Virus record (IMG/VR): IMGVR_UViG_3300020045_006822
Coordinates: 1 to 30,887 of that record
Length of the DNA stretch: 30,887 nucleotides
Direction: 5' to 3' (one strand)
DNA from: a virus
Lineage: Duplodnaviria; Caudoviricetes
A model generated the notes under the pieces. That model worked only from the letters and a program-made list of their open reading frames with translations, ran no database searches and was not told the origin of the DNA. This document shows, piece after piece, positions 6,502-23,043 of this stretch (position 1 is the first letter of the stretch; each line of letters begins with the position of its first letter). A program made the position numbers and the translations under genes.

Positions 6502-6639
6502 TTATTTAATACCATACTCAAAAAATAATAATTCTTTTTCCAACTCCTTAACTTTCTCCCAATCTTTATCGATGTAGGCTTTGCGTAGGTCTTTTTGCTT
6601 TTGGTCGATGGTGTAGATTATTGTGTTTTTATTCGACAT
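6502..6639 (-). CDS. Small hypothetical protein, 45 aa (not in ORF track)
   Basis: MSNKNTIIYTIDQKQKDLRKAYIDKDWEKVKELEKELLFFEYGIK fills the NinG-terS gap. Confidence 0.65.
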   Translation of the reverse strand: MSNKNTIIYTIDQKQKDLRKAYIDKDWEKVKELEKELLFFEYGIK

Positions 6640-7198: not shown

Positions 7199-7200
7199 AA

Positions 7201-7548
7201 TTAATATTTTACTATTCTAATTTCAATTCCTTTATTTTTAGCTAAATCTATCATTGACTTAGTTCCTTTGCTTTTACCATCCCAAAAAGCAATTAATCCA
7301 TCAGCATAATCTGCCATTTGTGAATTACGTTTATAACCAGCAGATTTACCATACTTATCCCAATCAGCTGGAAATTTAGTAATAGGGTAATTATTTTCGG
7401 TTGCATATTTTTCTCCTAATAAATCAGCACCTTTTGCCATGCCACTTACTATTTCAAAATACAAGTCTTTAGTGAAAAATTTATCACATTTTTTCTTTAG
7501 TAAATTATAATCATTAAAATATCTACTCCCAGCTATAATTATTTTCAT
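7201..7548 (-). CDS. SLOG-fold (YspA/DUF2493-like) protein
   Basis: IIIAGSR, IVSGMAKGAD, AGYKRN..M, FWDGKSKGT motifs. Confidence 0.85.
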   Translation of the reverse strand: MKIIIAGSRYFNDYNLLKKKCDKFFTKDLYFEIVSGMAKGADLLGEKYATENNYPITKFPADWDKYGKSAGYKRNSQMADYADGLIAFWDGKSKGTKSMIDLAKNKGIEIRIVKY

Positions 7549-7556
7549 ATTTTAAT

Positions 7557-7973
7557 TTAAAAGTACTGTTCAATATTAGATTCTATATCGTTGTTGTCTA
7601 AACCAAGCCATTGACAGATTACCTCTTTTACTCCATCGTAAACTTTGTTAAATTCTATTTCATCCATTGAATCAAAGCTAATTGAATGCGCTTTTTTATA
7701 AACTTCTCCTGTTATTAGATTGATTATTTCATCAAAGAAACCCGCTGTTACAATTATATCATGTCGCATTATTTCCATTGTTTTATAATCAGATTGGTTT
7801 TCGTATGCAAGTTTTAACAAAGCGAAAAATTTGCGATGAAAACGTATGTTCCTTTTTTTCTTATACTCAATCTCTACTATTTCATTAAATGGTATTTTTG
7901 AGAATGATTCACTATCTGAATCATAAGCTGGTTTTAAAAAGCCATTTATTGTTTTTACTACTAATACTTTCAT
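7557..7973 (-). CDS. DUF1367/NinB-like protein
   Basis: RNIRFHRKFFALL and SISFDSMDEIEF motifs. Confidence 0.75.
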   Translation of the reverse strand: MKVLVVKTINGFLKPAYDSDSESFSKIPFNEIVEIEYKKKRNIRFHRKFFALLKLAYENQSDYKTMEIMRHDIIVTAGFFDEIINLITGEVYKKAHSISFDSMDEIEFNKVYDGVKEVICQWLGLDNNDIESNIEQYF

Positions 7974-8239
7974 TTGTTTATTTTTGAATAGATTATACGC
8001 CCTAAATCCTTATCGGTTAACATCCAAGTTCCATAACTGATTTTACGCCCGAACTTGTTTTTAGTTTCTATTGTGATACATGGGATATCTAATCCGTAAT
8101 CTAATCTTAAATTTGACAAACGAGCAGATAAATTAAGTATTCCTGTCATAGCATAAATATACGAAAAATCTATTGATTTGCTATTTAGTAAGAAGTATAA
8201 AACTTCCGCAGTTTGGTTTTTAGGATGGTTTAAATTCAT
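7970..8239 (-). CDS. Winged helix-turn-helix protein
   Basis: GILNLSARLSNLR..G.DI pattern. Confidence 0.6.
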   Translation of the reverse strand: MNLNHPKNQTAEVLYFLLNSKSIDFSYIYAMTGILNLSARLSNLRLDYGLDIPCITIETKNKFGRKISYGTWMLTDKDLGRIIYSKINK

Positions 8240-8245
8240 AATGTT

Positions 8246-8386
8246 TTAATTTAAGTTAATAGTGAATAAATATTTTCTTTTTAAGTATTCGTTTTCAATA
8301 GCGATAAAAAAATCATAGTGTATTTTACCCGCAATAAATAGATTGCAATGGTAATCGTACATTCGTAATAATAAATCGTGTTCCAT
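8246..8386 (-). CDS. Small hypothetical protein, 46 aa (start MEHDLL)
   Basis: ATG 1 nt after the primase-helicase stop. Confidence 0.55.
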   Translation of the reverse strand: MEHDLLLRMYDYHCNLFIAGKIHYDFFIAIENEYLKRKYLFTINLN

Positions 8387-8387
8387 A

Positions 8388-10214
8388 TCAAAAAGGGATT
8401 TCTGCGTTTTCATCGTAAGGCATATCGTCAAAAACTCCTTTCAAATCATTCATTGAAACCAATGGAAAAGGTATTATTTCCTCAATTAAACTTTTATCTT
8501 TTTGCTTTCTGTTGTCGATTAAATTATAATCCTGTGGCTGCGTACCCACTTCATAATATCTCCCTGATGGTTTATGGTATTCAAAATCAACACTTGCACC
8601 AATTTCCCCTTGAAAAGTAAATTTTGTCTTAAGGTTTGTAAAAGTTGTTTTAGCGTCATCCCCAAACGTTCTGAATATACAATACCCATCATGCGCCTGA
8701 TTTCTAAAATCAGCACTACCTGAAACATCATAAAGAGTAGGGCGTTCATAATTCCCTGAATCCAATCGTTTCATTTTTGTTGGGTGCGCCACAACAATAA
8801 TTAGTACATTATTTTGCTGTGCAAACTGCGTTAGCCTTGAAAGTGTTTTGGTAATGTTTTCCCTTTCGCTTTTGTTCCCAGTAAACTCAACTTTATTCCA
8901 GGCATCAACCACAAAGATATTTATACCGCTTGAATAAATCTGCTCCCTGAATTTTTCAAATACCCAATCCCAGTTGGCAAACTCTCCTGAATCAGGACTT
9001 GTAAGGTATAATTTTTGATTTGCCCATTGGTGGAACTGCATAATATCCAGCTTACTTATTTTTTGTGTGCCATCTATATCAAAGAAATAATTCTTACCGA
9101 TGACTTTTTGAACAAATGTACTCATGTGCAATTCCAAAGGCTGATGTTCAGGGCTGAAAAAACTTGCTTTATAATCATTTTCCAAAAGATAATTTAAAAC
9201 AATCCATTCAGTAAAGTTAGATTTTCCATGTGATGGGATTCCGGTTCCAATAACCAAATGCCCAAACATCAACTTAAAAACATCATTAAGCCCTGATAAG
9301 GCAGGATTTTGTATGTTTATACAGTTTGGCAATCCTGCATCGTAAAGTTCCAACATCTTATCCAAAAGATCCTCTGTTGTGAATACGCCTGATACCGGAT
9401 ATTTTTTTGAGTTATAAATCGTTTCGTTAAGTTTACCGGACTTTAAGTCATCGTTAGCATCTTTACCTTCAAAAATAATCCTTTCACATCTGTAACGTCC
9501 TAAGCGCTGCGCAATCTTTTCAGCTACATTATTTCCGCTTTCGTCATTGTCTGTTGCTATGTAGAATTTCTTAATATCCTTTATGTACTTTTCTGAATTT
9601 ACCCAGTAATTGTCATTGTCGTTTGCTCCATTAGGAATTGATATTACATTTTTTATCCCAATTTCATAAAGAGCCATCACGTCAAACTCCCCTTCTACAA
9701 TGTAGGCTTCACTTTCTCCAATTATTGAATTTATATTGTAGAAAATCGGCTTTCCATTTTTGCTTTGAGTAAACTTCTTACCACCGGAACGGTATTTTTT
9801 ATTTACCAAAACATCCCCTTCAAAATAATTAAACACAATGTTAGTTACTTCTTTGTTTATGGAAGGTTGAAAATATTTTTCCTCTGACACTTCAAAATGT
9901 TTTAGTGTATATTGGTTTATCTTACGATCCGTTTCGCAATACTTAACCATAGCATCTGAAAGATTGGTATAATTTTTCCATTCCTGACTTGGCAGGGTGT
10001 AGTTTGATTGAACAATTGATTTAACGATGCTTTCCTTAAAGAATAAAGCATTACATCCATCGTTAAAACATTTAGCTGTTCCGTTATTAAACCAAACCAT
10101 CAATGACTTATCATTTTTGTTCTTTCGGGTATCGGTGCAAATAGGGCATTTTATCTTTGCTGTTCCGGATGTTTTGTTGGTATCTATTAAATCCCAAGGT
10201 TGAATATTTTTCAT
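8388..10214 (-). CDS. T7 gp4/Twinkle-like primase-helicase
   Basis: Zn-binding CPIC...CFNDGC, TOPRIM VEGEFD and DNDESG, helicase GIPSHGKS, VVAHP, GSADF. Confidence 0.93.
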   Translation of the reverse strand: MKNIQPWDLIDTNKTSGTAKIKCPICTDTRKNKNDKSLMVWFNNGTAKCFNDGCNALFFKESIVKSIVQSNYTLPSQEWKNYTNLSDAMVKYCETDRKINQYTLKHFEVSEEKYFQPSINKEVTNIVFNYFEGDVLVNKKYRSGGKKFTQSKNGKPIFYNINSIIGESEAYIVEGEFDVMALYEIGIKNVISIPNGANDNDNYWVNSEKYIKDIKKFYIATDNDESGNNVAEKIAQRLGRYRCERIIFEGKDANDDLKSGKLNETIYNSKKYPVSGVFTTEDLLDKMLELYDAGLPNCINIQNPALSGLNDVFKLMFGHLVIGTGIPSHGKSNFTEWIVLNYLLENDYKASFFSPEHQPLELHMSTFVQKVIGKNYFFDIDGTQKISKLDIMQFHQWANQKLYLTSPDSGEFANWDWVFEKFREQIYSSGINIFVVDAWNKVEFTGNKSERENITKTLSRLTQFAQQNNVLIIVVAHPTKMKRLDSGNYERPTLYDVSGSADFRNQAHDGYCIFRTFGDDAKTTFTNLKTKFTFQGEIGASVDFEYHKPSGRYYEVGTQPQDYNLIDNRKQKDKSLIEEIIPFPLVSMNDLKGVFDDMPYDENAEIPF

Positions 10215-10963
10215 AGTACGCCTTTCTGTATTTTGTAACCGTTGGAATTTATAAATGTATCGGATTCTGAAGTTTTGTTTTTGTTTTTAGAATGCCATTC
10301 ACTATCAAAACCTCCCCAACTTTTCTCAATGCATTTTTCCAGAATTTCATTTCCGCTATAACCACTTTTTTCAACTTGTTTTATAAATTTATTAAAGGCA
10401 GTTTCTGTGTTGGTAAGTCGTTTGTTTTTTCTAACCTTAATCCAATCTGAAACCAATTCTTTTTTATACCCTAAGTTAATTAATGAATGGTAAAAACTAA
10501 ACACAGGCAAAGCCGGTATATTTATTTCTTTTATATCTTTTACTGTATCATTAACTGTTACATTTACTGTATCTGTTACAGCGATGTTTGCGATTGGTTT
10601 TATCGCGCTACTATCGGGTTGCGATGCTTTGCGACTTTTAGCGATACTTTCAGCTTCATCTAACGTTATCTTTTTTGCTTCGTATTTAATAAATAGGTCA
10701 TTATTCCAACGCTTTAGATTTCCTATTCTACCATTTAAACTTTTATCTTCAATGCTTTTTTCGTAGGATTTTAGGTCTCGTTTAAGTTGCTGTTTAATAG
10801 GTTCAAAGACTAATTCAACTATTATATTTTCTGTTGTTGGATTTAAGTCATTGGTATATTCTAAAATATGTAAAAACAATTCTCCAGCATCTTCTTTACT
10901 CATCTTTTTAATAGTGTGTAGAAGATCGCAGTAAATTAAAAAAGATTTTTTATTTTCAGCCAT
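10211..10963 (-). CDS. Replication initiator (DUF6291-type N-terminus, lambda O-like role)
   Basis: KKSFLIYCD..., VTDTVNVTVND linker, C-terminal WIKVRK..T.TA...SWGGF; upstream of helicase. Confidence 0.7.
   Translation of the reverse strand: MAENKKSFLIYCDLLHTIKKMSKEDAGELFLHILEYTNDLNPTTENIIVELVFEPIKQQLKRDLKSYEKSIEDKSLNGRIGNLKRWNNDLFIKYEAKKITLDEAESIAKSRKASQPDSSAIKPIANIAVTDTVNVTVNDTVKDIKEINIPALPVFSFYHSLINLGYKKELVSDWIKVRKNKRLTNTETAFNKFIKQVEKSGYSGNEILEKCIEKSWGGFDSEWHSKNKNKTSESDTFINSNGYKIQKGVL
10541..10646. repeat. Iteron-like GCGAT repeats plus ACTGT repeats (candidate replication origin)
   Basis: GCGA(T/C) at 10581, 10590, 10621, 10631, 10641; inverted ATCG at 10602, 10613; about 10 bp phasing. 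Confidence 0.55.
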
Positions 10964-11207
10964 TACTAACCTCACTTTCTGTAATTTTATTAATTTCAGT
11001 TCGGAGTGTTTTAGCGAATTTTATTGCCGTGGACTTGTCTAAATAAATAATTCTTGAAATAGAATCTTCTGGGGTTATGGAAATTTGTATTATTCCATTA
11101 GGGTAAAATTCTAATATAAAATCATCATCAGGTTTTTTCATAGATACTGATAATGTAGTTTCATCAGTACAATCTATGAACTTTAAATCAAATTTTGCCA
11201 TGATCAT
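10956..11207 (-). CDS. Hypothetical protein, 83 aa
   Basis: First gene after promoter/leader A; overlaps initiator start. Confidence 0.8.
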   Translation of the reverse strand: MIMAKFDLKFIDCTDETTLSVSMKKPDDDFILEFYPNGIIQISITPEDSISRIIYLDKSTAIKFAKTLRTEINKITESEVSNG

Positions 11208-11239
11208 AAAGGTTTTTAAGATACCTATAAACTATTAAA

Positions 11240-11338
11240 AAGTGAAAATCCTATTAAGTCAGCGTGAAGTGAGATTTCGCTTTCCTAATAGGATTTTTAT
11301 AATGTTTTCCGGTTCGTAATAAATCTCACTAAATTACA
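11240..11338 (-). ncRNA. Kissing-loop leader RNA, copy A
   Basis: Hairpin GUAAU/AUUAC with loop UUAGUGAGAUUU; linker AAAACAUUAUA; 14-bp + 4-bp hairpin with loop AAAUCUCACUUCA; 10-nt loop complementarity. Confidence 0.75.
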
Positions 11339-11342
11339 TAAG

Positions 11343-11374
11343 CAAATATAAAAATATATTTTGATTAAATCAAA
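11343..11374 (-). promoter_or_regulatory. Bacteroidota sigma-A promoter TTTG-N20-TATATTTG driving the replication operon
   Basis: Consensus -33/-7 boxes; palindrome TTTTGATT-A-AATCAAAA overlaps the -33 box. Confidence 0.85.
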
Positions 11375-11427
11375 AGTTTTAATTAATAATTCTATTAGTT
11401 TTATTTTTTCGGGATTACTAAAAACCC

Positions 11428-11808
11428 TTAGCTAAAAGGTAAATCGTCGTGTTCTTGTTCTTTAAAATTTGTAGCTGGAGCAAAAGTTTCAGCAGCTGGC
11501 ATTGGAGGCATTTGCTGTGCAGATGGCGCATCAGACTGGATTTTTTCAATTCTCCAACCTTTAATAGAGTTGAAATATTTAGTTTCGCCTTGAGGGTTAA
11601 CCCACTCCCTCCCCCCTAAATTTATAGAAACTTTCACGTTTTGACCTACTGAAACGCTATTCAATAAGTCGGCTTTATCCTGTACAAATTCAATCATTAT
11701 TGACTGCGGATATTGCTCGTCAGTTGTAATTACTAATTCACGTTTTACGAATGATGCACTAACTTGTTGCGTGTCTCCGATTACTTTAATCTTACCTAAT
11801 ACTTCCAT
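11428..11808 (-). CDS. DUF3127 family single-stranded DNA-binding protein
   Basis: FVKRELVITTDEQYPQ, GREW...YFNSIKGWRI, acidic DDLPF tail. Confidence 0.9.
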   Translation of the reverse strand: MEVLGKIKVIGDTQQVSASFVKRELVITTDEQYPQSIMIEFVQDKADLLNSVSVGQNVKVSINLGGREWVNPQGETKYFNSIKGWRIEKIQSDAPSAQQMPPMPAAETFAPATNFKEQEHDDLPFS

Positions 11809-11819
11809 ACTACTCTTTT

Positions 11820-12500
11820 TTATCTGTTAATTTTTAATTTTAGTTCAGTAACCAATTTACTGAATATTTTTTGATCCTCTTTGCTTAACTCTAAAAACTT
11901 AGCTTTTAAAGACTCTTCTGTTTTGCAAAGTACTAATTCTTTGTTTACATTAGTTAATCGATCAGTTTCTTTCTTTTGAGCTAGTTCAGTTTCTTTCTTT
12001 TGAGCTAGTTCAGTTTCTTGTTGCTCTTTTAACTCTTCTGCTTTGCGTTCTGGATTATCAATATCATCCTCATCAGTAGATATATGAAAGAATTTAAGTA
12101 AAAAGTATCTTTCAGCATAAGTTAATGCGCTGCCTACTCCTTTATCCCAATCGTTTTGACCATTAGCACCGAAAAGGTTTTCGTCTTTATCTCCTGTTGC
12201 AACGTCAACCCAAGTAAATTTCATCATTACTTTAGATAGAATTTCGCTTTTAGGCTTACCACTCCACACTTTAGTTTCTTTGTCTTGAATTAATGATGTT
12301 GAATAGTCTTGTCTAATGTTGTCAATTGATATAATCTCTTGTTTTAAGATAATGCCTAATGAGTTCATCATAGGTTTAATATGGTCTAATACTTTAGTTC
12401 CTGTTACGTACTTATAGTTTTGACCATCTTTGTCTTTTCCAAGTCCTAAGATTTGACTTTGGATCTTGTGTAGTTTTTGGTAAAGGTTTAAATCTGCCAT
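11820..12500 (-). CDS. erf: ERF-family ssDNA annealing protein
   Basis: GSALTYAERYFLLKFFHISTDEDD signature; NYKY motif. Confidence 0.9.
   Translation of the reverse strand: MADLNLYQKLHKIQSQILGLGKDKDGQNYKYVTGTKVLDHIKPMMNSLGIILKQEIISIDNIRQDYSTSLIQDKETKVWSGKPKSEILSKVMMKFTWVDVATGDKDENLFGANGQNDWDKGVGSALTYAERYFLLKFFHISTDEDDIDNPERKAEELKEQQETELAQKKETELAQKKETDRLTNVNKELVLCKTEESLKAKFLELSKEDQKIFSKLVTELKLKINR
11962..12019. repeat. 24-bp perfect tandem repeat (2.4 copies) in erf
   Basis: TCAGTTTCTTTCTTTTGAGCTAGT x2 plus partial; encodes ETELAQKK x2. Confidence 0.95.
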
Positions 12501-12513
12501 AATATAATAATTT

Positions 12514-12595
12514 AAAAATCCCGACTAAAATCCCATAGGTCAGTATAGGCATAGTCAGGACTGAATAATTTTTGTATCAAACCCTGACCGATTTG
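12514..12595 (-). ncRNA. Kissing-loop leader RNA, copy B
   Basis: CAAAUC-GGUCAG-GGUUUG; linker ACAAAAAUUAUU; hairpin UCCUGACUA..CCUAUA-CUGACC-UAUGGG..UAGUCGGGA then UUUUU. Confidence 0.75.
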
Positions 12596-12603
12596 TTTAT
12601 GTA

Positions 12604-13680
12604 TTAAAGTTTTTCAATTTCAGATAACGCCCATTTTTTGTAAGCATCGAATTTTTCAATAATAGCTTTTGCCGTTTCGTTTTCAGTCATTGGAATTTCA
12701 GGAATTGAAAATGAATTAACCCAAACATTCAATTGTTTTTTAACTGGTGCTTTCGCTAATTTATCAGCTTCTTTTTTATCTGATTCAATTTTTGCTAAAC
12801 TTTCTCTTTCGGCTTTTGCTTTTTCATCGTTTAACCTTTGAATTTCAGCATCTTTTTCAGCCTGTATTTTAGCTTGTTTATCTGCTTCAATCTTTCTGTC
12901 CGCTTCTGCTTTTTCACGCTCTTGTTTAGCCTTTAATTCGATTGCGTCCTGAATAGCTTTTGCTTCTGCACGTTCTTTTTCAATTTGTTTTTCTTTCGCT
13001 TCTGCTTCGGATTTAAGTTTAGCATTTTCAATTTCAATAGCTTTTTGTCTTTCAATTTCTGCTAAACGTTCTATTTCAATTCGTAACACTTCCGCCTCAC
13101 GTTCTTTAGCTTCGTTTTCAAAGCGTGTTTTCTTACCTAAAACAAAATCGTCAAAACTTTCATCGTCAAATTCTGAAAAATTCATATTATCGGCATCCTC
13201 TACATAAGGTCTTATTTTTTCGATACGTTCCAAGTTGATTAAACGCAAACGTTCCTTTTCCTGATTCTCGAAAAACTTTTCGGCTTCAAGTAATTTGGAT
13301 TCCATTTGCTCATTTTCCACAACCTCTTTATTGTACACGGCATCGACAAAACGACCTCCAGCCAAATAAAAAGCTTTGTTTGCTGTATGCCAAACTTTTA
13401 ATCCTTGCGTTCTATTCTTTACAATTTTTAAACGTAGTTCCTTAAAAGCGGGTAACGTTTCAGTTGTAATTTCAAGTTTTAAAACGTCCTCATAAGCTGT
13501 TTTTAAAACTTCTCTTTCGGCTAATGTTGTAGAAAGTCCTACTGTCATTTCCTGTGCCTTTGATAATTCCAATCCGTACAGTTCCGGTTTTATTTCCTCT
13601 GTAAATTCAAGAGGTGGAATATTGTTAGGGTTTTCGTGTAAATCCCATTCTGTTTGCTGTAATGCTAAATCTTTACTCAT
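12604..13680 (-). CDS. Coiled-coil protein of the recombination module, 358 aa
   Basis: E/K/A-rich helical repeats; first gene of the leftward operon, upstream of erf. Confidence 0.8.
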   Translation of the reverse strand: MSKDLALQQTEWDLHENPNNIPPLEFTEEIKPELYGLELSKAQEMTVGLSTTLAEREVLKTAYEDVLKLEITTETLPAFKELRLKIVKNRTQGLKVWHTANKAFYLAGGRFVDAVYNKEVVENEQMESKLLEAEKFFENQEKERLRLINLERIEKIRPYVEDADNMNFSEFDDESFDDFVLGKKTRFENEAKEREAEVLRIEIERLAEIERQKAIEIENAKLKSEAEAKEKQIEKERAEAKAIQDAIELKAKQEREKAEADRKIEADKQAKIQAEKDAEIQRLNDEKAKAERESLAKIESDKKEADKLAKAPVKKQLNVWVNSFSIPEIPMTENETAKAIIEKFDAYKKWALSEIEKL

Positions 13681-13703
13681 CTCTTTTAAAATTTAAAGTT
13701 AGG

Positions 13704-13735
13704 CAAATATAAAACTTTTTTTGATATATATGAAA
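13704..13735 (-). promoter_or_regulatory. Leftward promoter TTTC-N20-TATATTTG
   Basis: Perfect -7 box, near-consensus -33 box. Confidence 0.75.
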
Positions 13736-13751
13736 TATTTTTATATATTTG
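13720..13751 (+). promoter_or_regulatory. Rightward promoter TTTG-N20-TATATTTG
   Basis: Consensus -33/-7 boxes, overlapping the leftward promoter. Confidence 0.85.
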
Positions 13752-13770
13752 TGAAATAAAAATTAAACTT

Positions 13771-14064
13771 ATGATATTAACAGAACAGGCAAAAACGGAT
13801 TTTAAAGAATGGTTAGAAAAAGAATATGATGTTCATTACTACAATCAGGAATGTAGAATAGACATTTGTTTAAACGCATTAATCATTGAATGGCTTGATT
13901 CAATTAATATATTTATAAATCCTTATCCTTGTAGTGATGGTTTATGGGATTATGAAATAACAAAAGATGAAAAATATTTAGCTGATGGTTTAGCTTTTAA
14001 AAACCGAACCGAAGCAACCAACAAAGCAATTGAAAAAGCTAACGAAATTTATAATACTAAATAA
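13771..14064 (+). CDS. Hypothetical phage protein
   Basis: First rightward gene; RTEATNKAIEKANEIYN C-terminus. Confidence 0.8.
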   Translation: MILTEQAKTDFKEWLEKEYDVHYYNQECRIDICLNALIIEWLDSINIFINPYPCSDGLWDYEITKDEKYLADGLAFKNRTEATNKAIEKANEIYNTK

Positions 14065-14065
14065 T

Positions 14066-14275
14066 ATGAATGAAGCACAACAATTATACCACCAACTTTT
14101 AATGAAAGCAGGAGGCAGGCAAAACAAAATAGTTGGTAAAATAGGAATACTTACCAGGTTGAGAAATGGATTCATGCCGGCATTGGAAACAGTCGTTAAA
14201 TTAATGATTGATAACGGTATTCCGTCGATCCACTTAAAAACAGAAACAACCGAACTAATAATTGAGATAAAGTAG
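14066..14275 (+). CDS. Hypothetical protein, possibly HTH-like (start MNEAQ)
   Basis: 1-nt spacers to both neighbours. Confidence 0.6.
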   Translation: MNEAQQLYHQLLMKAGGRQNKIVGKIGILTRLRNGFMPALETVVKLMIDNGIPSIHLKTETTELIIEIK

Positions 14276-14276
14276 T

Positions 14277-14630
14277 ATGGAATATTCAAACGCATATCAA
14301 GGAAGACACGGATTTGCAGACTTTGAAAGGAAAACATTTCAAATAACAAATAAAAAAGATTCAACAACAATTGAATGCCAACTTTTAAAAGTTCCAGACT
14401 ATACCTTTACGCATACCTACGTAGAAAAAATATGCGAGGGCAACGGATGGTATTCAAAAGGAGATAAAATATCAGAAAAGATCACTCACGATTTTTATTG
14501 GTTAGTAATTTTAAACGGTAACTGCATAGGTTGTATAAATGAAAACGAGAAGAAACCATTGAGTTTAAAATATGCTATTGAGGATTTAAAAGGCAAAAAA
14601 CACATAAAGGAATACTTATTAAAAATATAG
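14277..14630 (+). CDS. Hypothetical protein
   Basis: ORF track, operon packing. Confidence 0.75.
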   Translation: MEYSNAYQGRHGFADFERKTFQITNKKDSTTIECQLLKVPDYTFTHTYVEKICEGNGWYSKGDKISEKITHDFYWLVILNGNCIGCINENEKKPLSLKYAIEDLKGKKHIKEYLLKI

Positions 14631-14743
14631 ATAAAGTAATTTTCCTACAATACAAAACCCTATAAACATTTGGAATGTTGAAATAATGTAGTTGGATTGA
14701 GTAAATAAATTATTAAAAACGCTTTTTATTCGTTTTTATATAT

Positions 14744-14751
14744 TACATTTG
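14744..14751 (+). promoter_or_regulatory. -7 promoter element TACATTTG
   Basis: Intergenic, 29 nt before ATG 14781; preceded by inverted repeat TAAAAACG-N9-CGTTTTTA. Confidence 0.65.
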
Positions 14752-14780
14752 CTTATTATTAATTTATAAAAATTTAAAAA

Positions 14781-15275
14781 ATGTCAAGAATCACAAAAGA
14801 AATCGCATCAGAAGTAGCTTTAAAACTAATTTCTAAAAAATCAGATGAAATCATAAAACTGGACAAAGAAATTTCAGAAATATTTGAAGTTATGGTTTTA
14901 TCAAAATTGCCGAGAGCTGTAAAAGAAACTTTTAAATCAAATAAGGTTTTCTTTAACAGAAGAAAAAGTTTTCAAATAAGCGGTAATGGTTTTGATTACG
15001 TTTATGTAAATACGACAAATGAAGTTCCATACAATAATAGTTCATTTGTAGCAACAGCAGAAGAATCAAAAATACTTTTGCCTATGGTTAACAAAAAGAC
15101 TGAATTAGAAGTTAATTATAGAAAGTTGTATCGTGAAATTGAAACGCTTTTATATTCATTAAGAACCTATTCAAAAGTTATTGCAGAATTTCCAGAAGCA
15201 GAGCCTTTTTTACCCGCTTCAATTTCCAATAAATTAATGTTAAACGTTTCTGATATCAGAAAGCAATTGAAATAA
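14781..15275 (+). CDS. Nmad5-like (nucleotide modification associated domain 5) protein
   Basis: RITKEI N-terminus and LYSLRTYSKVIAEFPEAEPFLP C-terminal pattern. Confidence 0.55.
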   Translation: MSRITKEIASEVALKLISKKSDEIIKLDKEISEIFEVMVLSKLPRAVKETFKSNKVFFNRRKSFQISGNGFDYVYVNTTNEVPYNNSSFVATAEESKILLPMVNKKTELEVNYRKLYREIETLLYSLRTYSKVIAEFPEAEPFLPASISNKLMLNVSDIRKQLK

Positions 15276-15276
15276 T

Positions 15277-15450
15277 ATGCCACGAAACAAATTACCACAG
15301 GAACAAAAAAAAGTCAGATGGATGACAATTTACGTAGATCCAAAAGCTATTCCAAGAATGGATAAATCGGAAGTTAACCAATTAATCAACCGCCTACAAT
15401 CCGAATCGTTATCAAAATGCGCGGATGAGGCTTTAAAAAGTAAATTATGA
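15277..15450 (+). CDS. Small hypothetical protein, 57 aa, possibly ribbon-helix-helix (not in ORF track)
   Basis: MPRNKLPQEQKKVRWMTIYVDPK...; ATGA overlap with the next gene. Confidence 0.65.
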   Translation: MPRNKLPQEQKKVRWMTIYVDPKAIPRMDKSEVNQLINRLQSESLSKCADEALKSKL

Positions 15451-15725
15451 GTAAATTAGTAGGATTAGTAGATAATGTTTATGTATTCGGGAACGCTGAA
15501 ATTTCAGTAGGAATAGGTAAAACTAAAGATGTTAAGCAACCATTTATATCAATTGCAAAAATGCAATATCCAGCTTCTAAAATAGCAGAGGATATAGTTG
15601 ATAAAAACATCCCTGAAAACAAAAAAATAATTTTATTATTCAAAAATATTCAAGGCTTGGAAGTTTTAGAAAAAATGATAAAGGAGTGTAAAAAGGAGTT
15701 GAAACTTCAAGCTAAATTATTATGA
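15447..15725 (+). CDS. Hypothetical protein
   Basis: ATGA-coupled ORF. Confidence 0.75.
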   Translation: MSKLVGLVDNVYVFGNAEISVGIGKTKDVKQPFISIAKMQYPASKIAEDIVDKNIPENKKIILLFKNIQGLEVLEKMIKECKKELKLQAKLL

Positions 15726-15985
15726 TACACTACCCAGACCCAACAGAAACCTACGACGAGGTAAAGGAATATACAAAAGAGGAATTATTCTATCAGGAGG
15801 AATCCCACAGCGACGAAACGATAAACTACGTTGATGAGTTGGAGCGTATAATAAAAGATTTCAGAGCGAAAAAAAAGGAGGTTGTATCGGACTTGATTAC
15901 TTTACGTGATACCGCACAGGCTGGAGGTCGTTTGACTTTCTATGTAAAAAAAATGAATGGTTTAATTAATAAATTGAAAGGATGA
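15722..15985 (+). CDS. Hypothetical protein
   Basis: ATGA-coupled ORF. Confidence 0.75.
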   Translation: MIHYPDPTETYDEVKEYTKEELFYQEESHSDETINYVDELERIIKDFRAKKKEVVSDLITLRDTAQAGGRLTFYVKKMNGLINKLKG

Positions 15986-16275
15986 GTAATTTTAAAATCG
16001 GAGAAAAAGTTGTTTGTGTTGATGCAAATAATATTTTTAATGAAACTTTGACAATTCAATCAGATGCAATTGTAAAAGGTGAAATTTATACCATTAAGTC
16101 GTTTAATTCTGTTGGAGGTTTAGTCTTGTTAGAGATTTACAACGGTGTTTTTTTTGATGGTGAAACAGGTGGTTTTAGAGAGAGCCGCTTCCGCAAACTC
16201 GACCACGGATTTGGCGAAAAGATTTGTGCAGAAATATTGGAAAGTATCAAAGTTGATGAACTACAATACAATTAA
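15982..16275 (+). CDS. Hypothetical SH3-like protein
   Basis: FKIGEKVVCVD...KGEIYTI...RFRKL. Confidence 0.7.
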   Translation: MSNFKIGEKVVCVDANNIFNETLTIQSDAIVKGEIYTIKSFNSVGGLVLLEIYNGVFFDGETGGFRESRFRKLDHGFGEKICAEILESIKVDELQYN

Positions 16276-16276
16276 T

Positions 16277-16435
16277 ATGCACATTTCAGAATACTACGCC
16301 CGAAAGGTTTTACCAAAGAATCCGGCAAAATCATTAATTGAAGTACAAAAACAGATTTTTAAAACACTACCGGCATACGTTCGGGAACTAATAAAGAAAG
16401 ATTATGAGCAAAGCAATTCAAAACAAAATAGATAA
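16277..16435 (+). CDS. Small hypothetical protein, 52 aa (start MHISEY)
   Basis: ATG 1 nt after the upstream stop. Confidence 0.6.
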   Translation: MHISEYYARKVLPKNPAKSLIEVQKQIFKTLPAYVRELIKKDYEQSNSKQNR

Positions 16436-16724
16436 AAATAAATCTATTATCGTTAAACTTCTAAATGAAAATATTGATTTAGAGTACAATTTAAAATTAA
16501 AAAGTTTTACAAGGTTTTCTGAAAAAGAAGCGACAGTTTCAAAAAAAGATAAAACGCCAATAAAATTAAAAATAGGACATTGGTTTGAATGGTTTTATGA
16601 CCGAGATTTTCCAAAAGATAAAAAACACGCTGTAAAAATTGAAAGAAGTCATATTTTTGAAATTGACGGAATTAAAAGTAATCATTGGAATAAAATAAAA
16701 TACTACACCATTAACGATATTTAA
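16404..16724 (+). CDS. Hypothetical protein
   Basis: ORF track, operon packing. Confidence 0.7.
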   Translation: MSKAIQNKIDKNKSIIVKLLNENIDLEYNLKLKSFTRFSEKEATVSKKDKTPIKLKIGHWFEWFYDRDFPKDKKHAVKIERSHIFEIDGIKSNHWNKIKYYTINDI

Positions 16725-16726
16725 TT

Positions 16727-16936
16727 ATGAGAGCAGAAATAAATAATTGGCAGTCGGAATGTGAAAAATTTCAAAATTGGTTTCAAGCCTTAGGAGGCAA
16801 CATTTCAAGTAACGAGCAAATGACCGAAGCCTTTAGTAAAATCGAAGCAAAAAAGCTATCAGATAACCGCCTTTATGAGTTATTGGAAGCGGATAGGGCT
16901 AAACAAATCGAAGTTAACGAACCTGAAATACTTTAA
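16727..16936 (+). CDS. Hypothetical protein
   Basis: ORF track, operon packing. Confidence 0.7.
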   Translation: MRAEINNWQSECEKFQNWFQALGGNISSNEQMTEAFSKIEAKKLSDNRLYELLEADRAKQIEVNEPEIL

Positions 16937-16965
16937 TTCATTCAACTTTTAAAAAACAGATAATT

Positions 16966-17373
16966 ATGAAACCAACGATTGAGGAAGTAAAGGAATATTT
17001 TAAGAATGCGAAAGAAGTTAAATCAGTAATAAAACCATTTAAAGGCAAATTAAATTTACATAAAATATATTACAATCAATATTTTAAATCAGATATATGG
17101 TGTCCTAGCGTTTGTGGAAATTATAATATTTTATTATATTGTAGCCTTTCAAACCAATACGCCGAAATCATATCCTACAAAGAGGAAACCGTAACCGTTC
17201 CAAAATCACTTATAACCGAACTTTGCAAAGATAAAAATGTACGTGATATTTTGGTTAGGAATGGGGTTGTTGTTGAGGAGACATACATCCAAATTCCATT
17301 ATCTGAAATCCGCAAGACTTCAAACGATGCAGAGTTGGGTAGAACTGTTCGGAATATAGCGGATAAGTATTAA
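16966..17373 (+). CDS. Hypothetical protein
   Basis: MKPTIEEVKEYFKNAKEV start; ORF track. Confidence 0.75.
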   Translation: MKPTIEEVKEYFKNAKEVKSVIKPFKGKLNLHKIYYNQYFKSDIWCPSVCGNYNILLYCSLSNQYAEIISYKEETVTVPKSLITELCKDKNVRDILVRNGVVVEETYIQIPLSEIRKTSNDAELGRTVRNIADKY

Positions 17374-17376
17374 AGT

Positions 17377-17640
17377 ATGGCAAAGTATATTTTTACAATC
17401 CCTCAAATGGCTAAAGACTTAAATATTGATGAAACAACCATACATCGTAGGATAAAAAAACTTGCTATTCAAGGACGTAAACCGAGAAAGGGTAAAGGGC
17501 TTAGATATGCAGAAGAACACTTCAAAAGGATAGGTAGGATAAAAGATTTTCCTGAGCATGACAATATCGCTATAATATTTGAAAAGTATAATATATTTGC
17601 TATTATACCATCTAAAATGAATTATTTAAACAAATTATAA
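17377..17640 (+). CDS. Helix-turn-helix DNA-binding protein
   Basis: TIPQMAKDLNIDETTIHRRIKKL. Confidence 0.75.
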   Translation: MAKYIFTIPQMAKDLNIDETTIHRRIKKLAIQGRKPRKGKGLRYAEEHFKRIGRIKDFPEHDNIAIIFEKYNIFAIIPSKMNYLNKL

Positions 17641-17653
17641 ACAACGCTTACCT

Positions 17654-17684
17654 ATTGCGTATTGAAATAGAAGTTGTATATTTG
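17654..17684 (+). promoter_or_regulatory. Promoter ATTG-N19-TATATTTG
   Basis: Perfect -7 box with a TTG -33 box. Confidence 0.75.
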
Positions 17685-17758
17685 ATGAACCGATTTGAGA
17701 GAGTCGGTTTTTAAATCGCTAACCGTGTGTAATTTTACACGCATAAAACTTAATTATT

Positions 17759-18004
17759 ATGAAAACAAGAATTTTATTATTTGTTATTTTATTGTGTTTA
17801 ACATCTTGTAAGGATAAGTTATCTTATACAGATACGGAATGCAATAACTTAAAAAAAGGAGATACTATTTATATTAAAGAATTTTATTCAGTTGGAAAAT
17901 TTATAGTATTAAAAAATATTCCTGAAAGAGAGTTAGTCGAGGTTTATAATGCGGAATACACTTGGGATAAAAACATTTTTACATATTCAAATTTAAAAGA
18001 ATAA
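17759..18004 (+). CDS. Small lipoprotein
   Basis: Signal peptide II MKTRILLFVILLCLTS-C. Confidence 0.75.
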   Translation: MKTRILLFVILLCLTSCKDKLSYTDTECNNLKKGDTIYIKEFYSVGKFIVLKNIPERELVEVYNAEYTWDKNIFTYSNLKE

Positions 18005-18007
18005 ACC

Positions 18008-18166
18008 ATGAAACAAAAAATAGAAAATTTACTTTTAAAGTACAGTAAAACGGATTTGTCGGAAAAGTTAGGAATCACACGTAAAACCCTAAACGCCCGA
18101 ATTGAAAACGACACTTGGAAAAAATTAGAAATCGAAAAAATAAATAGGTTATGTCAAGAGAAATAA
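18008..18166 (+). CDS. Cro-like HTH protein, 52 aa (not in ORF track)
   Basis: SKTDLSEKLGITRKTLNARIENDTWKKLE. Confidence 0.75.
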   Translation: MKQKIENLLLKYSKTDLSEKLGITRKTLNARIENDTWKKLEIEKINRLCQEK

Positions 18167-18648
18167 CATTAGAACATTTATCGGCTTATTTGCCTTGGGG
18201 ATTGGAATTCATTTCGGAATTAGATAAACCTTATGATGAATACGGAAAACAGCCAAATTGGACGTTGAATGGAATAACAGAAATGTTTGGGGATAAATGC
18301 TTAATGACTTTAGAGAGTTCGGATGCTTATCCAATACACTTATGTAAACCAATCCTACGCCCACTTTCAGACCTTACAAAGGAAATTGAGGTTAATGGAG
18401 AGAAGTTTGTGCCTATTTTGGAATGGTGCGACATTCCAGATACCATTACTGTTTTTAGTATTGGATATGAAAGGAAAAACTATTTTGCAAAATTTGCTTT
18501 TGATTCTGAAATAGTTACTTATAAAATTCCTTCTGATGCCGATAGTATGAATTATTACACAATAAAAAAACTTCTTTCTTGGCACTTCGACGTTTTCGGA
18601 CTAATTGAATCAGGAAACGCAATCGATAAAAACACCTTAACAAAATGA
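18151..18648 (+). CDS. Hypothetical phage protein
   Basis: LSAYLPWGL, CKPILRPLSDL, WHFDVFGLIESGNAID patterns recurrent in Bacteroidota phages. Confidence 0.8.
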   Translation: MSREITLEHLSAYLPWGLEFISELDKPYDEYGKQPNWTLNGITEMFGDKCLMTLESSDAYPIHLCKPILRPLSDLTKEIEVNGEKFVPILEWCDIPDTITVFSIGYERKNYFAKFAFDSEIVTYKIPSDADSMNYYTIKKLLSWHFDVFGLIESGNAIDKNTLTK

Positions 18649-19130
18649 GCAAATTAATACAGATTTTACCGAAAATATGGGGCGTTAAAGTTCCTATGGA
18701 TGCAGATGATTTTAGATTTTCATTACATAACAACGTTCATTTAACTTATGTGTTAAAAAATAGAGAATCAATTGATTTAGGAAGTAAAAACGACTTCAAT
18801 ATCCTCGGAACGGTTACAAAATCAGAAATCAGTTTTGATGCTTCCGATGTGGTGGAAAATCTATCCGATGGCGATGAAGTTCCTACTTATAAATTTCACG
18901 AAAATAGAGAAGGTAAAAATGCAATATGTTTCAATTCAGAACAATCATTCCGTTCAGCATTGCCCGAAGATATTATTTGGGAGAATCCTTTTTAGAAACC
19001 TTTTTATTCAGATTTGATGTTAATTTATATGAACCATTATGATAAAAAAGCATATCAAGAACGATTAAACCAATGGCAATCCGCCCAACAACAAATTACA
19101 GAAAAAATTTTAATAGTAACTCAAATATAA
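18645..19130 (+). pseudogene. Hypothetical gene interrupted by an in-frame TAG at 18993-18995
   Basis: Frame stays open for 44 codons after the TAG, ending 6 nt before the next ATG. Confidence 0.6.
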
Positions 19131-19136
19131 ATAATT

Positions 19137-19373
19137 ATGGCAACATTTAAAGAGCTAATCTTGAATAGTTATGGTAAAGAAAATGCTGAATTATTAGACA
19201 GAATACCATTAAATGAATGGGATGAACTTTCAAATATGTTAGAAATAAGAACTGATGGAGGTGTATTAAGTCCCGACTATGAATTCGTGGCTAATGTTTT
19301 TATTAAAAGTATTGAAATCTATAAATTATTAAAACCCGATTGCAAGGATAAGTGCTGTAAATATTATGAATAA
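19137..19373 (+). CDS. Hypothetical protein
   Basis: ORF track. Confidence 0.7.
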   Translation: MATFKELILNSYGKENAELLDRIPLNEWDELSNMLEIRTDGGVLSPDYEFVANVFIKSIEIYKLLKPDCKDKCCKYYE

Positions 19374-19626
19374 CTTATTAGATGAATTTTTAAACCACAA
19401 AAGTGATGCTTCAAATTTAGAGGCAAGTCAACAAGAAGAATTGCAAAAAAGCTTTCAAGAATGGTTGGATAATAGAAAACCATCATTTGAAGAATCCGCA
19501 AGACCACTTATGAAATATTTAGGGCATAATCATCATCCTCATACTTCAGCAATTGTGGAGAGCAATAAAGCAGAATTAGTTGAAGGATTGGAGGTATTTA
19601 ATACTGAAGATTATATTTTAGATTAA
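19366..19626 (+). CDS. Hypothetical phage protein
   Basis: FEESARPLMKYL..NHHPH motif. Confidence 0.75.
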   Translation: MNNLLDEFLNHKSDASNLEASQQEELQKSFQEWLDNRKPSFEESARPLMKYLGHNHHPHTSAIVESNKAELVEGLEVFNTEDYILD

Positions 19627-19634
19627 ACTTTTAA

Positions 19635-19656
19635 AAGGGCTTGAAATATAGCCCTT
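19635..19656 (+). other. Intergenic hairpin AAGGGCT-TGAAATAT-AGCCCTT
   Basis: 7-bp perfect stem, weak U tail. Confidence 0.6.
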
Positions 19657-19705
19657 ATTCAAGAACCAAACCAATCCTCAAAGGATTAAATAAACAATAG
19701 GAAGT

Positions 19706-19894
19706 ATGATTGCAAAACTAAAAATGACTTTAATTAGAGTTTCAGAGGGTGGATTATTCCATGACACAAGAAAAGACGTTCGTTTATTAGCGAGTTGCAT
19801 CAATGAATTACGTAAAAAATTAAACGAAGTTATTGATGAAAATAATGAGCTTAAAGAAACTGTAAAAAACCTAAACAACCCAAAACACATTTAA
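19706..19894 (+). CDS. Small coiled-coil hypothetical protein
   Basis: ORF track. Confidence 0.65.
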   Translation: MIAKLKMTLIRVSEGGLFHDTRKDVRLLASCINELRKKLNEVIDENNELKETVKNLNNPKHI

Positions 19895-19911
19895 CATCTA
19901 AAAATAAAAAT

Positions 19912-20244
19912 ATGGAAGCATCAGAATTACGTATCGGAAATTATGTAAACACCGAAAGAGGATTTAAAAAAATATCTTTCGTTTCAATTGATTGGACAGG
20001 ATTTGTCGAATGCGAACCAATTCCATTATCGGATCAAATATTGTTGGATTGTGGGTTTGTTTCAAAATTAGGAAAATTCGGTAATGAATATCATAATGAC
20101 AATTTTTCAATTTATACATCTGAAAAAGGAACTTTCTGTTTTGTGTGGGATAATTTTTTAAGAGATGTTTATTTCTTGCACGAATTACAGAATTTGTATC
20201 ACATACTCAAAAACAAAGAACTAACCATTAATCTAAAAAAGTAA
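19912..20244 (+). CDS. Hypothetical phage protein (YopX-like pattern)
   Basis: ELRIGNYV, EPIPLSDQILLDCGF, LHELQNLY. Confidence 0.7.
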   Translation: MEASELRIGNYVNTERGFKKISFVSIDWTGFVECEPIPLSDQILLDCGFVSKLGKFGNEYHNDNFSIYTSEKGTFCFVWDNFLRDVYFLHELQNLYHILKNKELTINLKK

Positions 20245-20246
20245 TT

Positions 20247-20603
20247 ATGGAAGCAAGAACAGAAATTGAACCACATCCCGAAGATTATTGTCAGATTTGC
20301 AAAGGTAAAAACGTTTGTTGGTATGCTCCAAACGAAATATTCAATTCGGTAAATGGAAATGACATCGGTATAATGTGTCCTCAATGTTTTGAAAAAATGG
20401 CAAAAGAAAAAGGATACGACAAATTGATTTTTAGAGTTGAAGATTTAGCAAGCTCCCAACCCGATTTGATTGGTAAACTGAAAGAGGCGAAAGAACTTCT
20501 TGAAAAACTATTTCAAATGAATATGTGTTCAATAAAAGGAGATGAATTAATAACAGATTTTTTACAACAATTAACCAACCCTGAAAATCAGGATAAAAAA
20601 TAG
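20247..20603 (+). CDS. Putative zinc-finger protein
   Basis: CQIC...CPQC. Confidence 0.7.
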   Translation: MEARTEIEPHPEDYCQICKGKNVCWYAPNEIFNSVNGNDIGIMCPQCFEKMAKEKGYDKLIFRVEDLASSQPDLIGKLKEAKELLEKLFQMNMCSIKGDELITDFLQQLTNPENQDKK

Positions 20604-20608
20604 AGAGG

Positions 20609-20821
20609 ATGAAAAATAAAGTAATTATTATCGGAATGTTATTATTATTTGTAGGATGTAAAGATACCTCAACAAATTATATTGAAAACAACAATAAAAA
20701 AATAGGTGCATATGAAATAACAATTATTGAGGGATGTGAATATATAGTTGTTACTTAAGACAGAAGCCGTTGCGTAACCCACAAAGGAAATTGTACAAAT
20801 CATAAACCCCTAACCAAATGA
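20609..20821 (+). pseudogene. Small lipoprotein gene interrupted by an in-frame TAA at 20756-20758
   Basis: MKNKVIIIGMLLLFVG-C...IEGCEYIVVT*DRSRCVTHKGNCTNHKPLTK; distal TGA overlaps the next ATG (ATGA). Confidence 0.7.
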
Positions 20822-21306
20822 AAACACTACCTAAATTATCGGAGTATGTGAAACGCTTAGATGTTTCTTCAAACTTTAAAACAGATACTCAAGACTTAGA
20901 AGAAATTATTGATTACACAAACTTCATTACCCAACCCTTAAACCTATCCCATTTCGTTCCTGCTAAATTAGTAGATGAATTTTGGATTATACTTGAAGAA
21001 CCAAAAGAGCCTGAAAGTCCTTATAACGATAAACAATGTGATATTTGGGCGCAATACGAAATCTACAAAAGTAGATACCAAACCGCATTAGAGAATGTAA
21101 TTTTTAAGGGATTTGAAGTTTCAGAAATATTAGGACGTTCTGAATATCATTTAAGAATAGCTCATTCAGAAAAAGATTTTATGCCATTTAGGAAAGTAAA
21201 TAATACAGATAAATGGACTATAAAAGATTCTATATTTGACATCGAAGAACTTATTCCCTACAACCTCGAAATAACCGATAAAATTGCAGAGAAATTTAAA
21301 ATATAA
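20818..21306 (+). CDS. Hypothetical phage protein
   Basis: ORF track; YTNFITQPLNLSHFVP, VIFKGF. Confidence 0.8.
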   Translation: MKTLPKLSEYVKRLDVSSNFKTDTQDLEEIIDYTNFITQPLNLSHFVPAKLVDEFWIILEEPKEPESPYNDKQCDIWAQYEIYKSRYQTALENVIFKGFEVSEILGRSEYHLRIAHSEKDFMPFRKVNNTDKWTIKDSIFDIEELIPYNLEITDKIAEKFKI

Positions 21307-21309
21307 TTG

Positions 21310-21317
21310 TACATTTG
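21310..21317 (+). promoter_or_regulatory. -7 promoter element TACATTTG ahead of the methyltransferase leader
   Basis: TAnnTTTG match 5 nt before hairpin 1 of leader C. Confidence 0.65.
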
Positions 21318-21322
21318 CTAAA

Positions 21323-21410
21323 CGGTTCTGGTACAACCGAAATAAAAACATTATAGCCTTTTAGCCAAACCGATAGTACCAGCGTCGGGAGTAACTGAAA
21401 GGCATTTTTA
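21323..21410 (+). ncRNA. Kissing-loop leader RNA, copy C
   Basis: CGGUU-CUGGUAC-AACCG; linker AAAACAUUAUA; GCCUUUUAG..CCGAU-AGUACCAGC-GUCGG..CUGAAAGGC then AUUUUU. Confidence 0.78.
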
Positions 21411-21423
21411 TATACAACACAAA

Positions 21424-22266
21424 ATGAAAAAAGCACAAATATTCAATAATCACTTTCAAAACTTCAAAACCTATGCTATACCGAAGGCTCAATTAATAAT
21501 TGCAGATATTCCGTATAATTTAGGAAATAATGCTTACGCATCAAATCCAGCATGGTACAAAGACGGTGATAATCAAAATGGCGAAAGTGATTTAGCAGGT
21601 AAAAGTTTCTTTGATACCGACGAAGATTTCAGACCTGCAGAATTTATGCACTTTTGCAGCACAATGTTACGCCCTGAACAAAAAACTGTAAAAGTTGAAG
21701 GTGTGGCAAGGCAAAAAAGTGGCGCGCCTTGTATGATTGTATTTTGTGCGTTCGATCAACAAATGTATTTGATAGAATTAGCAAAGAGATACGGATTGAA
21801 TAATTATATAAATCTTGTTTTTCGTAAAAATTTCAGTGCGCAAGTCTTAAAAGCAAATATGAAAGTTGTCGGGAATTGTGAATATGGTTTGATTTTTTAT
21901 CGTGACAAATTACCTAAATTCAATAATAAAGGTAAAATGATTTTCAATTGTATGGATTGGGAGCGTGACGGTTCGGAGGTTGAAAAATTACACCCAACTC
22001 AAAAGCCTTTGAAATTGTTAAAAAATTTAATAGAAATATTTACTGATGAAGGCGATGTTATTATTGACCCTTGCGCAGGAAGTGGGTCTACTTTAATTGC
22101 AGGACAGGAATTAAAAAGGCGTGCCTTTGGATTCGAGATTAAAAAACCTTTTCACAAATTAGCTTCAAATTGGATTGATAATGAATTTACAAAACTGTCA
22201 GAAATTGAGGAATTTGGATTTGCAAAAACATTAATATCAAAACATCAAAACACTTTATTTCACTAA
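21424..22266 (+). CDS. Orphan N4-cytosine/N6-adenine DNA methyltransferase (beta order)
   Basis: Motif IV DIPY, HPTQKP, motif I DPCAGSGST. Confidence 0.92.
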   Translation: MKKAQIFNNHFQNFKTYAIPKAQLIIADIPYNLGNNAYASNPAWYKDGDNQNGESDLAGKSFFDTDEDFRPAEFMHFCSTMLRPEQKTVKVEGVARQKSGAPCMIVFCAFDQQMYLIELAKRYGLNNYINLVFRKNFSAQVLKANMKVVGNCEYGLIFYRDKLPKFNNKGKMIFNCMDWERDGSEVEKLHPTQKPLKLLKNLIEIFTDEGDVIIDPCAGSGSTLIAGQELKRRAFGFEIKKPFHKLASNWIDNEFTKLSEIEEFGFAKTLISKHQNTLFH

Positions 22267-22958: not shown

Positions 22959-23032
22959 TTGCGCAGATCGGACTCGAACCGACGACCTCAAGGTTATGAG
23001 CCTTGCAAGCTAACCAACTGCTCTACTGCACG
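22959..23032 (-). tRNA. tRNA-Met(CAT), initiator-like; CCA not encoded
   Basis: Cloverleaf CGTGCAG-TA-GAGC-AGTTGGTTA-GCTT-G-CAAGG-CTCATAA-CCTTG-AGGTC-GTCGG-TTCGAGT-CCGAT-CTGCGCA-A; C1xA72 mismatch and A11:U24. Confidence 0.93.
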
Positions 23033-23035
23033 AGG

Positions 23036-23043
23036 CAAATATA
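23036..23043 (-). promoter_or_regulatory. -7 promoter element TATATTTG for the tRNA
   Basis: TAnnTTTG 3 nt before the tRNA 5' end. Confidence 0.7.

Follow-up and report, generated by a model that had tools for sequence, protein, structure and literature searches.

The question raised by this locus is whether three intergenic regions of a phage genome that share one architecture belong to a genuine RNA family, and how such an RNA could act on the genes behind it. The regions lie in a virus record that is linear, measures 30,887 bases and has the gene set of a Flavobacteria phage (IMG/VR record IMGVR_UViG_3300020045_006822; this whole stretch is termed the window). We judge these leaders to be members of a real RNA family, unmatched in Rfam and in the searched literature, which probably represents a variant of kissing-loop attenuation and for which we propose a function below.

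Three leaders and their promoters

The three elements described in the initial annotation (11240-11338 and 12514-12595 on the minus strand, 21323-21410 on the plus strand) are all present at these positions. Each comprises a short hairpin, an A-rich linker and a long terminator-like hairpin that is followed by a U run, and re-reading of all three copies bears out the claim that loop 1 is complementary to loop 2 (the kiss). In copy 1 (minus strand), hairpin 1 (11316-11337) is weak, at about -1 kcal/mol, and its loop A (AGUGAGAUUU, 11330-11321) pairs with loop B (AAAUCUCACU, 11277-11268) of the terminator-like hairpin 2 (11297-11245), which occupies 11237-11297 together with its U-rich tail; both hairpins show covariation. 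The linker between them (11298-11315) contains AAAACAUUAUA at 11308-11298, a word that recurs in copy 3, as had been noticed earlier. Copy 2 (12512-12595, minus strand) pairs GGUCAG in hairpin 1 (12589-12584) with CUGACC in hairpin 2 (12543-12538) across its linker and also ends in a U run. Copy 3 (21323-21411, plus strand) contains hairpin 1 (21323-21339) with the loop CUGGUAC (21328-21334), a linker (21340-21355), hairpin 2 (21356-21403) with the loop GUACCAG (21376-21382), and a U run; its hairpin 2 carries an internal loop, which we take to resemble loop E. The two-hairpin folding z-scores of copies 1, 2 and 3 are -3.7, -3.3 and -2.7, respectively, and cross-pairing among the three copies does not exceed 3 bp. 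A descriptor-based scanner, which demands two separate hairpins with loops complementary over at least 6 bases, matches the window exactly three times, at the three leaders. An earlier and slightly stricter version recovered two of the three copies; its matches in 100 shuffled windows numbered four, with at most one per window.

A TAnnTTTG box, overlooked by the initial annotation, lies 4-5 nucleotides (nt) upstream of copies 1 and 3. This predicted -7 box of a Bacteroidota sigma-A promoter is located at 11343-11350 (minus strand) for copy 1, with a predicted +1 near 11338, and at 21310-21317 (plus strand) for copy 3, with a predicted +1 at 21322. Because the Flavobacterium promoter box sits at -12 to -5 (PMC9723704), hairpin 1 is predicted to begin the transcript. 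Across the family, hairpin 1 starts at the predicted +1 to +3, and the gap between box and leader peaks at 4-6 nt. Copy 2 retains just a remnant of the promoter with two mismatches and starts 8 nt past the upstream stop codon; its homolog in locus L001 has a promoter-like box.

Covariation, loop codes and spread of the family

To collect relatives, 242 phage loci (2,997,872 bases) were assembled via homologs of erf, the methyltransferase, the SSB and the initiator, together with two stretches of cultured phages. The strict scanner returned 114 matches in these loci and nine in block-shuffled copies. A promoter box accompanies 82 of the 114 matches (background 3.3%), and promoter and U tail occur together in 72 of them, compared with none of the nine shuffled matches. 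The 102 distinct elements were reduced to 87 by promoter, tail and linker filters, and five clear homologs were restored to give a set of 92 elements.

Since scanner matches are pre-selected for the kiss, covariation was assessed in three sets that are independent of it. The first comprises loci of orthologues of the 81-residue (81-aa) open reading frame (ORF) behind copy 1; 79 of the 80 loci were used, which yielded 69 distinct upstream regions, 67 of them with a promoter and a long hairpin. In 59 of these 67, the first 24 nt contain a complement of at least 7 bases to the apex of hairpin 2, with 38 different codes, compared with 7% of swapped pairs. Among the automated misses, six show the kiss by eye, one 6-base match is real and one is spurious, so the true count is about 66 of 67. 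Loop-masked profiles, the second set, found nine further loci, and the kiss is kept in eight of them as judged by eye. For the third set, a pattern that fixes just the promoter, the 5´ arm, two loop bases and the linker found 37 loci, 27 of them distinct; a kiss of 7-8 bases is present in 26 of the 27, with seven codes, and the single miss is a non-homolog. An alignment of 17 copy-1 relatives, 15 of them scanner-chosen, gave 99.3% pairing in the kiss, where changes affect both partners in six of eight pairs and never go by way of G-U. In the corresponding alignment of seven copy-3 relatives the kiss is 100% paired, and two of its seven pairs vary. The loop-loop covariation first described within one genome thus extends to homologs, including those chosen without regard to the kiss, and because the relatives retain the loop match with different letters, a genuine RNA family is indicated. 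One copy-3-type leader (L006:7681-7782) carries the hairpin 2 of L214 in exact reverse complement. Its kiss is broken, because the inverted hairpin makes loop B equal to loop A. This hairpin could be a natural inversion or an assembly error, and two such flips could explain codes in both orders.

The initial annotation had further proposed that private loop codes prevent cross-pairing. In 21 contigs with two or more elements, 4 of 72 ordered pairs cross-pair, compared with 5.5 expected (P=0.43), which lends no support to selection against it. All four fall in L222, which carries two copies with the same code; the other 20 of the 21 contigs are free of cross-pairing. Near-identical leaders, in which the kiss spans 10 bases and the linker 10 nt, occur at L222:2009-2088 and L222:4780-4859 and also in L081, L212 and L223, often without a promoter, and this recurring type is the best natural case in which cross-talk and steric strain could be tested. 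When 34 copy-1-type leaders are compared in pairs, they differ on average by 0.26 in the kiss, and the values for three stem arms are 0.19, 0.47 and 0.42. The codes diverge no faster than the stems, and selection for fast code change was not found. As cross-pairing is not depleted either, the codes appear to act like an ordinary helix under compensatory drift, and the comparison indicates that shape, rather than letters, is the conserved feature. Of 145 elements, 138 were resolved, with 76 core codes, and a GU/AC step ends the kiss in 90 of them. On the GU strand the spacer is short and lies 5´ (mean 1.6 nt, frequently AA); that of the AC strand lies 3´ and is A-rich (mean 2.5 nt). Either strand can reside on hairpin 1 (50 versus 41 elements, although relatives are not independent). 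A polarised kiss motif that is usable in both orders is new here.

The linker, which is 52% A, had been proposed to be conserved and to bind a shared factor. The motif AAAYAUUA occurs in 26 of 92 linkers, compared with 1.5 in shuffled linkers, spans several subfamilies and usually keeps a fixed spacing to hairpin 2, which sustains part of the claim; the exact 11-mer is found in just three of 92, and no shared factor was identified. In the copy-1 subfamily, the motif looks steadier than the stems by eye. It also resembles the local start-codon context, in that AUU precedes 18% of 2,937 ORF starts. A leader peptide was considered and rejected: ATG is present in 7 of 92 linkers, and frames from the linker AUA are not conserved by eye. 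The linker reach has a median of 18 nt-equivalents and stays at about 11-23 nt despite an inserted extra hairpin. Such a third small hairpin, with a GAGAA/UUUUCUC base, defines a subfamily with similar single-stranded reach in L056, L091, L170, L178, L212, L214, L219 and L224.

The initial annotation could not assign the leaders to a named family, and Rfam likewise gave no match for the three copies and 18 homolog loci. A literature search that covered few subscription journals returned no description of the leader family, although large motif-discovery tables could hold one. Cultured phages carry a leader at the copy-1 position with codes of their own, namely the Flavobacterium phages elemoA_7-9A and mumin9-1 (two leaders) and the Cellulophaga phages phi19:1 and phi18:3 (the last two by eye). 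No element was found in the 24.7 kb of FpV9 that were examined. In 80 Flavobacterium chromosomal loci (1.39 Mb, largely mutually homologous), none of nine matches is promoter-linked, and the copy-1 model had no match in 150 genomes with 26 candidates scored per listed genome; both are weak negatives. The module is optional: it is present before erf in 2 of 79 loci and before the methyltransferase in none of 77, among them an orthologue with 97% identity. Different leader subfamilies substitute for each other before one and the same gene. The module looks like a portable promoter-leader cassette.

Genes behind the leaders

The next start codon lies a median of 15 nt past hairpin 2 (85 elements with an ORF). 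Fifty of the 85 downstream proteins were scanned, which revealed 10 HNH or GIY-YIG nucleases, 11 initiator, primase, helicase, methylase or AAA_24 proteins, two others and 27 without a Pfam family, a tally that is biased to DNA metabolism by the seed genes. In the window, a replication and nin block (6629-10975, minus strand; DUF6291 initiator-like protein, primase-helicase, NinB-like, SLOG and NinG) is located behind copy 1, erf (11820-12500, minus strand) and a DUF3127 SSB-like gene (11428-11808, minus strand) behind copy 2, and an N6/N4 DNA methyltransferase gene (21424-22266, plus strand) behind copy 3. The first gene behind copy 1 is the 81-aa ORF (10956-11201, minus strand) and not the initiator.

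Relatives of the 81-aa ORF number 1,218, and Pfam assigns it to no family. Its structure model has a predicted local distance difference test score (pLDDT) of 87.7, and the top ten Foldseek matches are all Pur-alpha, with weak E values of 0.06-0.17. A second structure search (VIA) likewise ranks PUR repeats first, with Z 7.4 and a root mean square deviation of 2.2 over 63 residues aligned to PURA repeat III, which is under the Z 8 bar, and a sequence search against solved structures returned noise alone (E about 1). The model is suggestive of a PUR/PC4-type fold, which binds single-stranded nucleic acids. A small hairpin with a CUUAAAA loop (11199-11236, minus strand) lies in the start-codon region of this ORF and is a candidate translational operator. 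The hairpin, with its loop near-constant, occurs in 64 of 67 orthologous leaders, and in the remaining loci and the window all 14 matches precede an 81-aa-type gene (13 flagged, one by eye); Rfam gave no match for it. BpuR, a PUR-fold protein of Borrelia, binds the 5´ region of its own mRNA (PMC4347634). By analogy with this protein on its own mRNA leader, the CUUAAAA hairpin may be an autoregulatory operator of the 81-aa ORF; the two cases differ in that the relation to BpuR is a fold match alone (Z 7.2, 14% identity) and that binding by the 81-aa protein is putative. Also new here is the combination, behind copy 1, of a predicted PUR/PC4-fold gene and a conserved operator-like hairpin of its own. 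A leader precedes the PUR-like gene in 66 of 67 orthologous loci. The PUR-like protein was rejected as a universal leader factor, since its gene stands directly behind 4 of 92 scanner-found leaders and within 6 of 67 leader-bearing loci, which are partial. The gene was not found in 401 genomes searched, which is a weak negative.

Further signals were observed in the window. Divergent TAnnTTTG boxes at 13711 (minus strand) and 13744 (plus strand) mark the point where the leftward recombination-replication arm meets the rightward small-ORF arm. At 17677-17758 (plus strand), a promoter box is followed by two hairpins, the first of 10 bp and with a U run, ahead of an 81-aa ORF with a lipoprotein-like signal; this is a simple leader terminator that lacks a kiss partner. 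A tRNA gene with a CAT anticodon and its own TAnnTTTG box (22959-23043, minus strand) directly follows the lysozyme gene. In the late region, an Rfam DUF805b motif (3440-3472, minus strand; 44.4 bits, above the gathering score) is located before a 51-aa ORF.

How the leaders might act

Comparison of the sequences establishes the promoter position, the two helices, a strict Watson-Crick kiss with compensatory changes, the U-rich tail and the portability of the module. The order of promoter, leader, U run and start codon before DNA-metabolism genes agrees with the attenuator position suggested by the initial annotation. We propose, with nearly even confidence, that the leaders attenuate transcription in cis by a competition between the kiss and the closure of the terminator. 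Because the long interrupted hairpin 2 would expose loop B before its base can close, the kiss would form first, while the polymerase is still copying hairpin 2, and would then compete with closure of the base. This competition would set the share of transcription that continues past the terminator to the gene some 15 nt further on, with termination presumably at the U run. The kiss would be read as a shape rather than as an address, and our default guess for the input is a fixed leak or a general factor. The leaders place a G-C-containing hairpin and a U-rich tract between promoter and gene, as expected of a terminator, and at least five U occur in the 8 nt past the last G-C pair in 72 of 92 and 51 of 59 tails. 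The kiss duplex (about -9.2 kcal/mol) and the opening of the basal 7 bp (9.5 kcal/mol) are roughly matched, on a rough estimate. No nested antiterminator was found, the median gain from an alternative partner being 0.55 kcal/mol. The anti-terminating direction of the kiss is borrowed by analogy from the guanidine-IV (mepA) riboswitch, in which a kiss between the loop of the 5´ hairpin and the loop region of the terminator hairpin is reported to compete with terminator completion during transcription (PMC11611296).

Several observations weigh against cis attenuation. Just 3-4 U are present in the 8 nt of 20 of 92 tails, and a canonical terminator scan does not call the hairpin 2s on account of their long loops and interrupted stems. 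The search for a regulatory input found none. On a crude length estimate, the linkers of 74 of 92 elements, if stretched, are long enough (median ratio 1.35) for the kiss to coexist with the complete terminator. With this reach, steric exclusion as suggested for guanidine-IV is no necessity, and the kiss might aid termination. The long linker is, by this estimate, the main evidence against attenuation by competition, and it would allow the kiss to act in either direction.

That same reach bears on a stabilising clasp, in which the kiss aids terminator folding, shields either the terminated RNA or the read-through mRNA at its 5´ end, or adjusts translation from the adjacent start codon. Coexistence at a reach held to about 11-23 nt even with an extra hairpin, a 5´ end buried by hairpin 1 and the median of 15 nt from hairpin 2 to the start codon would all suit it, but the U tails and G-C basal pairs indicate termination and pure protection leaves the mid-operon copy unexplained, which makes the clasp rather improbable. 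Where the linker seems too short for the finished RNA to kiss itself (18 of 92), pairing in trans comes into view: terminated leaders might pair with the loop of a nascent leader, block the cis kiss and shut the operon after an early pulse. Promoter and terminator would free an RNA of 80-100 nt, the prophage leaders P4 CI and IsrK offer a precedent (PMC4825925), and 20 of the 21 multi-copy contigs lack cross-pairing. Most released RNAs could nevertheless self-kiss, selection is evident neither for orthogonality nor for fast code change, separate partner hairpins are not in excess in the partial loci (53 versus 56 expected) and neither are antisense promoters (6 of 92 versus a background of 8.5%), and copy 2 of the window sits mid-operon; we regard such feedback as about as improbable as the clasp.

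A protein-gated antiterminator, the model of the initial annotation stripped of its address codes, in which a phage or host protein on the kissed fold or on the AYAUUAUA linker switches read-through on or off, seems unlikely, though less so than either of these. The enrichment of AAAYAUUA in 26 of 92 linkers over 1.5 in shuffled ones, for the most part with constant spacing to hairpin 2, its constancy by eye relative to the stems in the copy-1 subfamily and the predicted PUR/PC4-fold gene behind the leader in 66 of 67 cases point to it. Most linkers lack the motif, however, and the PUR-like gene is directly behind few leaders in the wider set (4 of 92; 6 of 67 partial loci) and has a separate hairpin motif of its own. 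A metabolite or ion riboswitch of guanidine-IV design would share the topology and could use the structured internal loops, but it is very improbable: loop and stem letters vary freely, with 76 core codes in 138 elements and no invariant ligand-binding nucleotides at the kiss, the downstream genes encode replication proteins and nucleases rather than transport or metabolism, and Rfam gave no match, the presence of guanidine-IV in the Rfam copy being unconfirmed. A wider conception is doubtful, if a little less so than protein gating: the leaders may form a widespread class of ligand-free, portable promoter-valve cassettes that share one polarised kissing-loop motif, work with any code in either order, are switched during infection by their own terminated RNA or by a phage PUR-like RNA-melting protein, and time the expression of replication, methylase and homing-endonuclease genes.

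Several known systems come close to the leaders. HK022 put and lambda nut are also structured RNAs just past an early phage promoter and ahead of delayed-early-type genes; in the leaders described here, hairpin 2 runs straight into the U run, the loops are complementary and an invariant box is absent. The antisense attenuators of pT181 and pIP501 likewise tie a loop-loop contact to a leader terminator before replication genes, whereas the phage leaders have neither an enrichment of antisense promoters nor a nested alternative fold. P1 C4 is grouped with P4 CI-type RNA-pairing leaders, and a C4-type covariance model had no match in the window or in 18 homolog loci. RNA-RNA pairing and premature termination in prophage leaders are described for P4 CI (seqA-seqC) and Gifsy-1 IsrK (PMC4825925). 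The leaders studied here resemble these as phage leaders with (proposed) premature termination before replication or antirepressor genes, but they pair two hairpin tips of one 80-100 nt RNA, and no separate antisense RNA or processed product was found. The likeness to guanidine-IV lies in the complementarity of the 5´ hairpin loop to the terminator loop. The phage leaders differ in their freely varying kiss letters with no evident ligand or fixed pocket, in their long A-rich linker, and in their phage setting before replication, recombination, methylation and nuclease genes rather than mepA-type exporters. A paper on establishment genes of pLS20 (PMC8708921) was dropped as a precedent, since its accessible text has no mention of zipper, attenuat, kissing, terminator or leader.

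To our knowledge, the timing of replication genes in Bacteroidota phages has been little studied. The leader family, an RNA element both common and strongly covarying, is situated at exactly these genes, and direct tests are feasible because leaders are present in cultured phages that have hosts. If the kiss does tune termination without a ligand, the mechanism of one riboswitch would extend to phages as a control module of general use, and RNA engineering would gain dozens of natural kissing-loop terminators as interchangeable parts.

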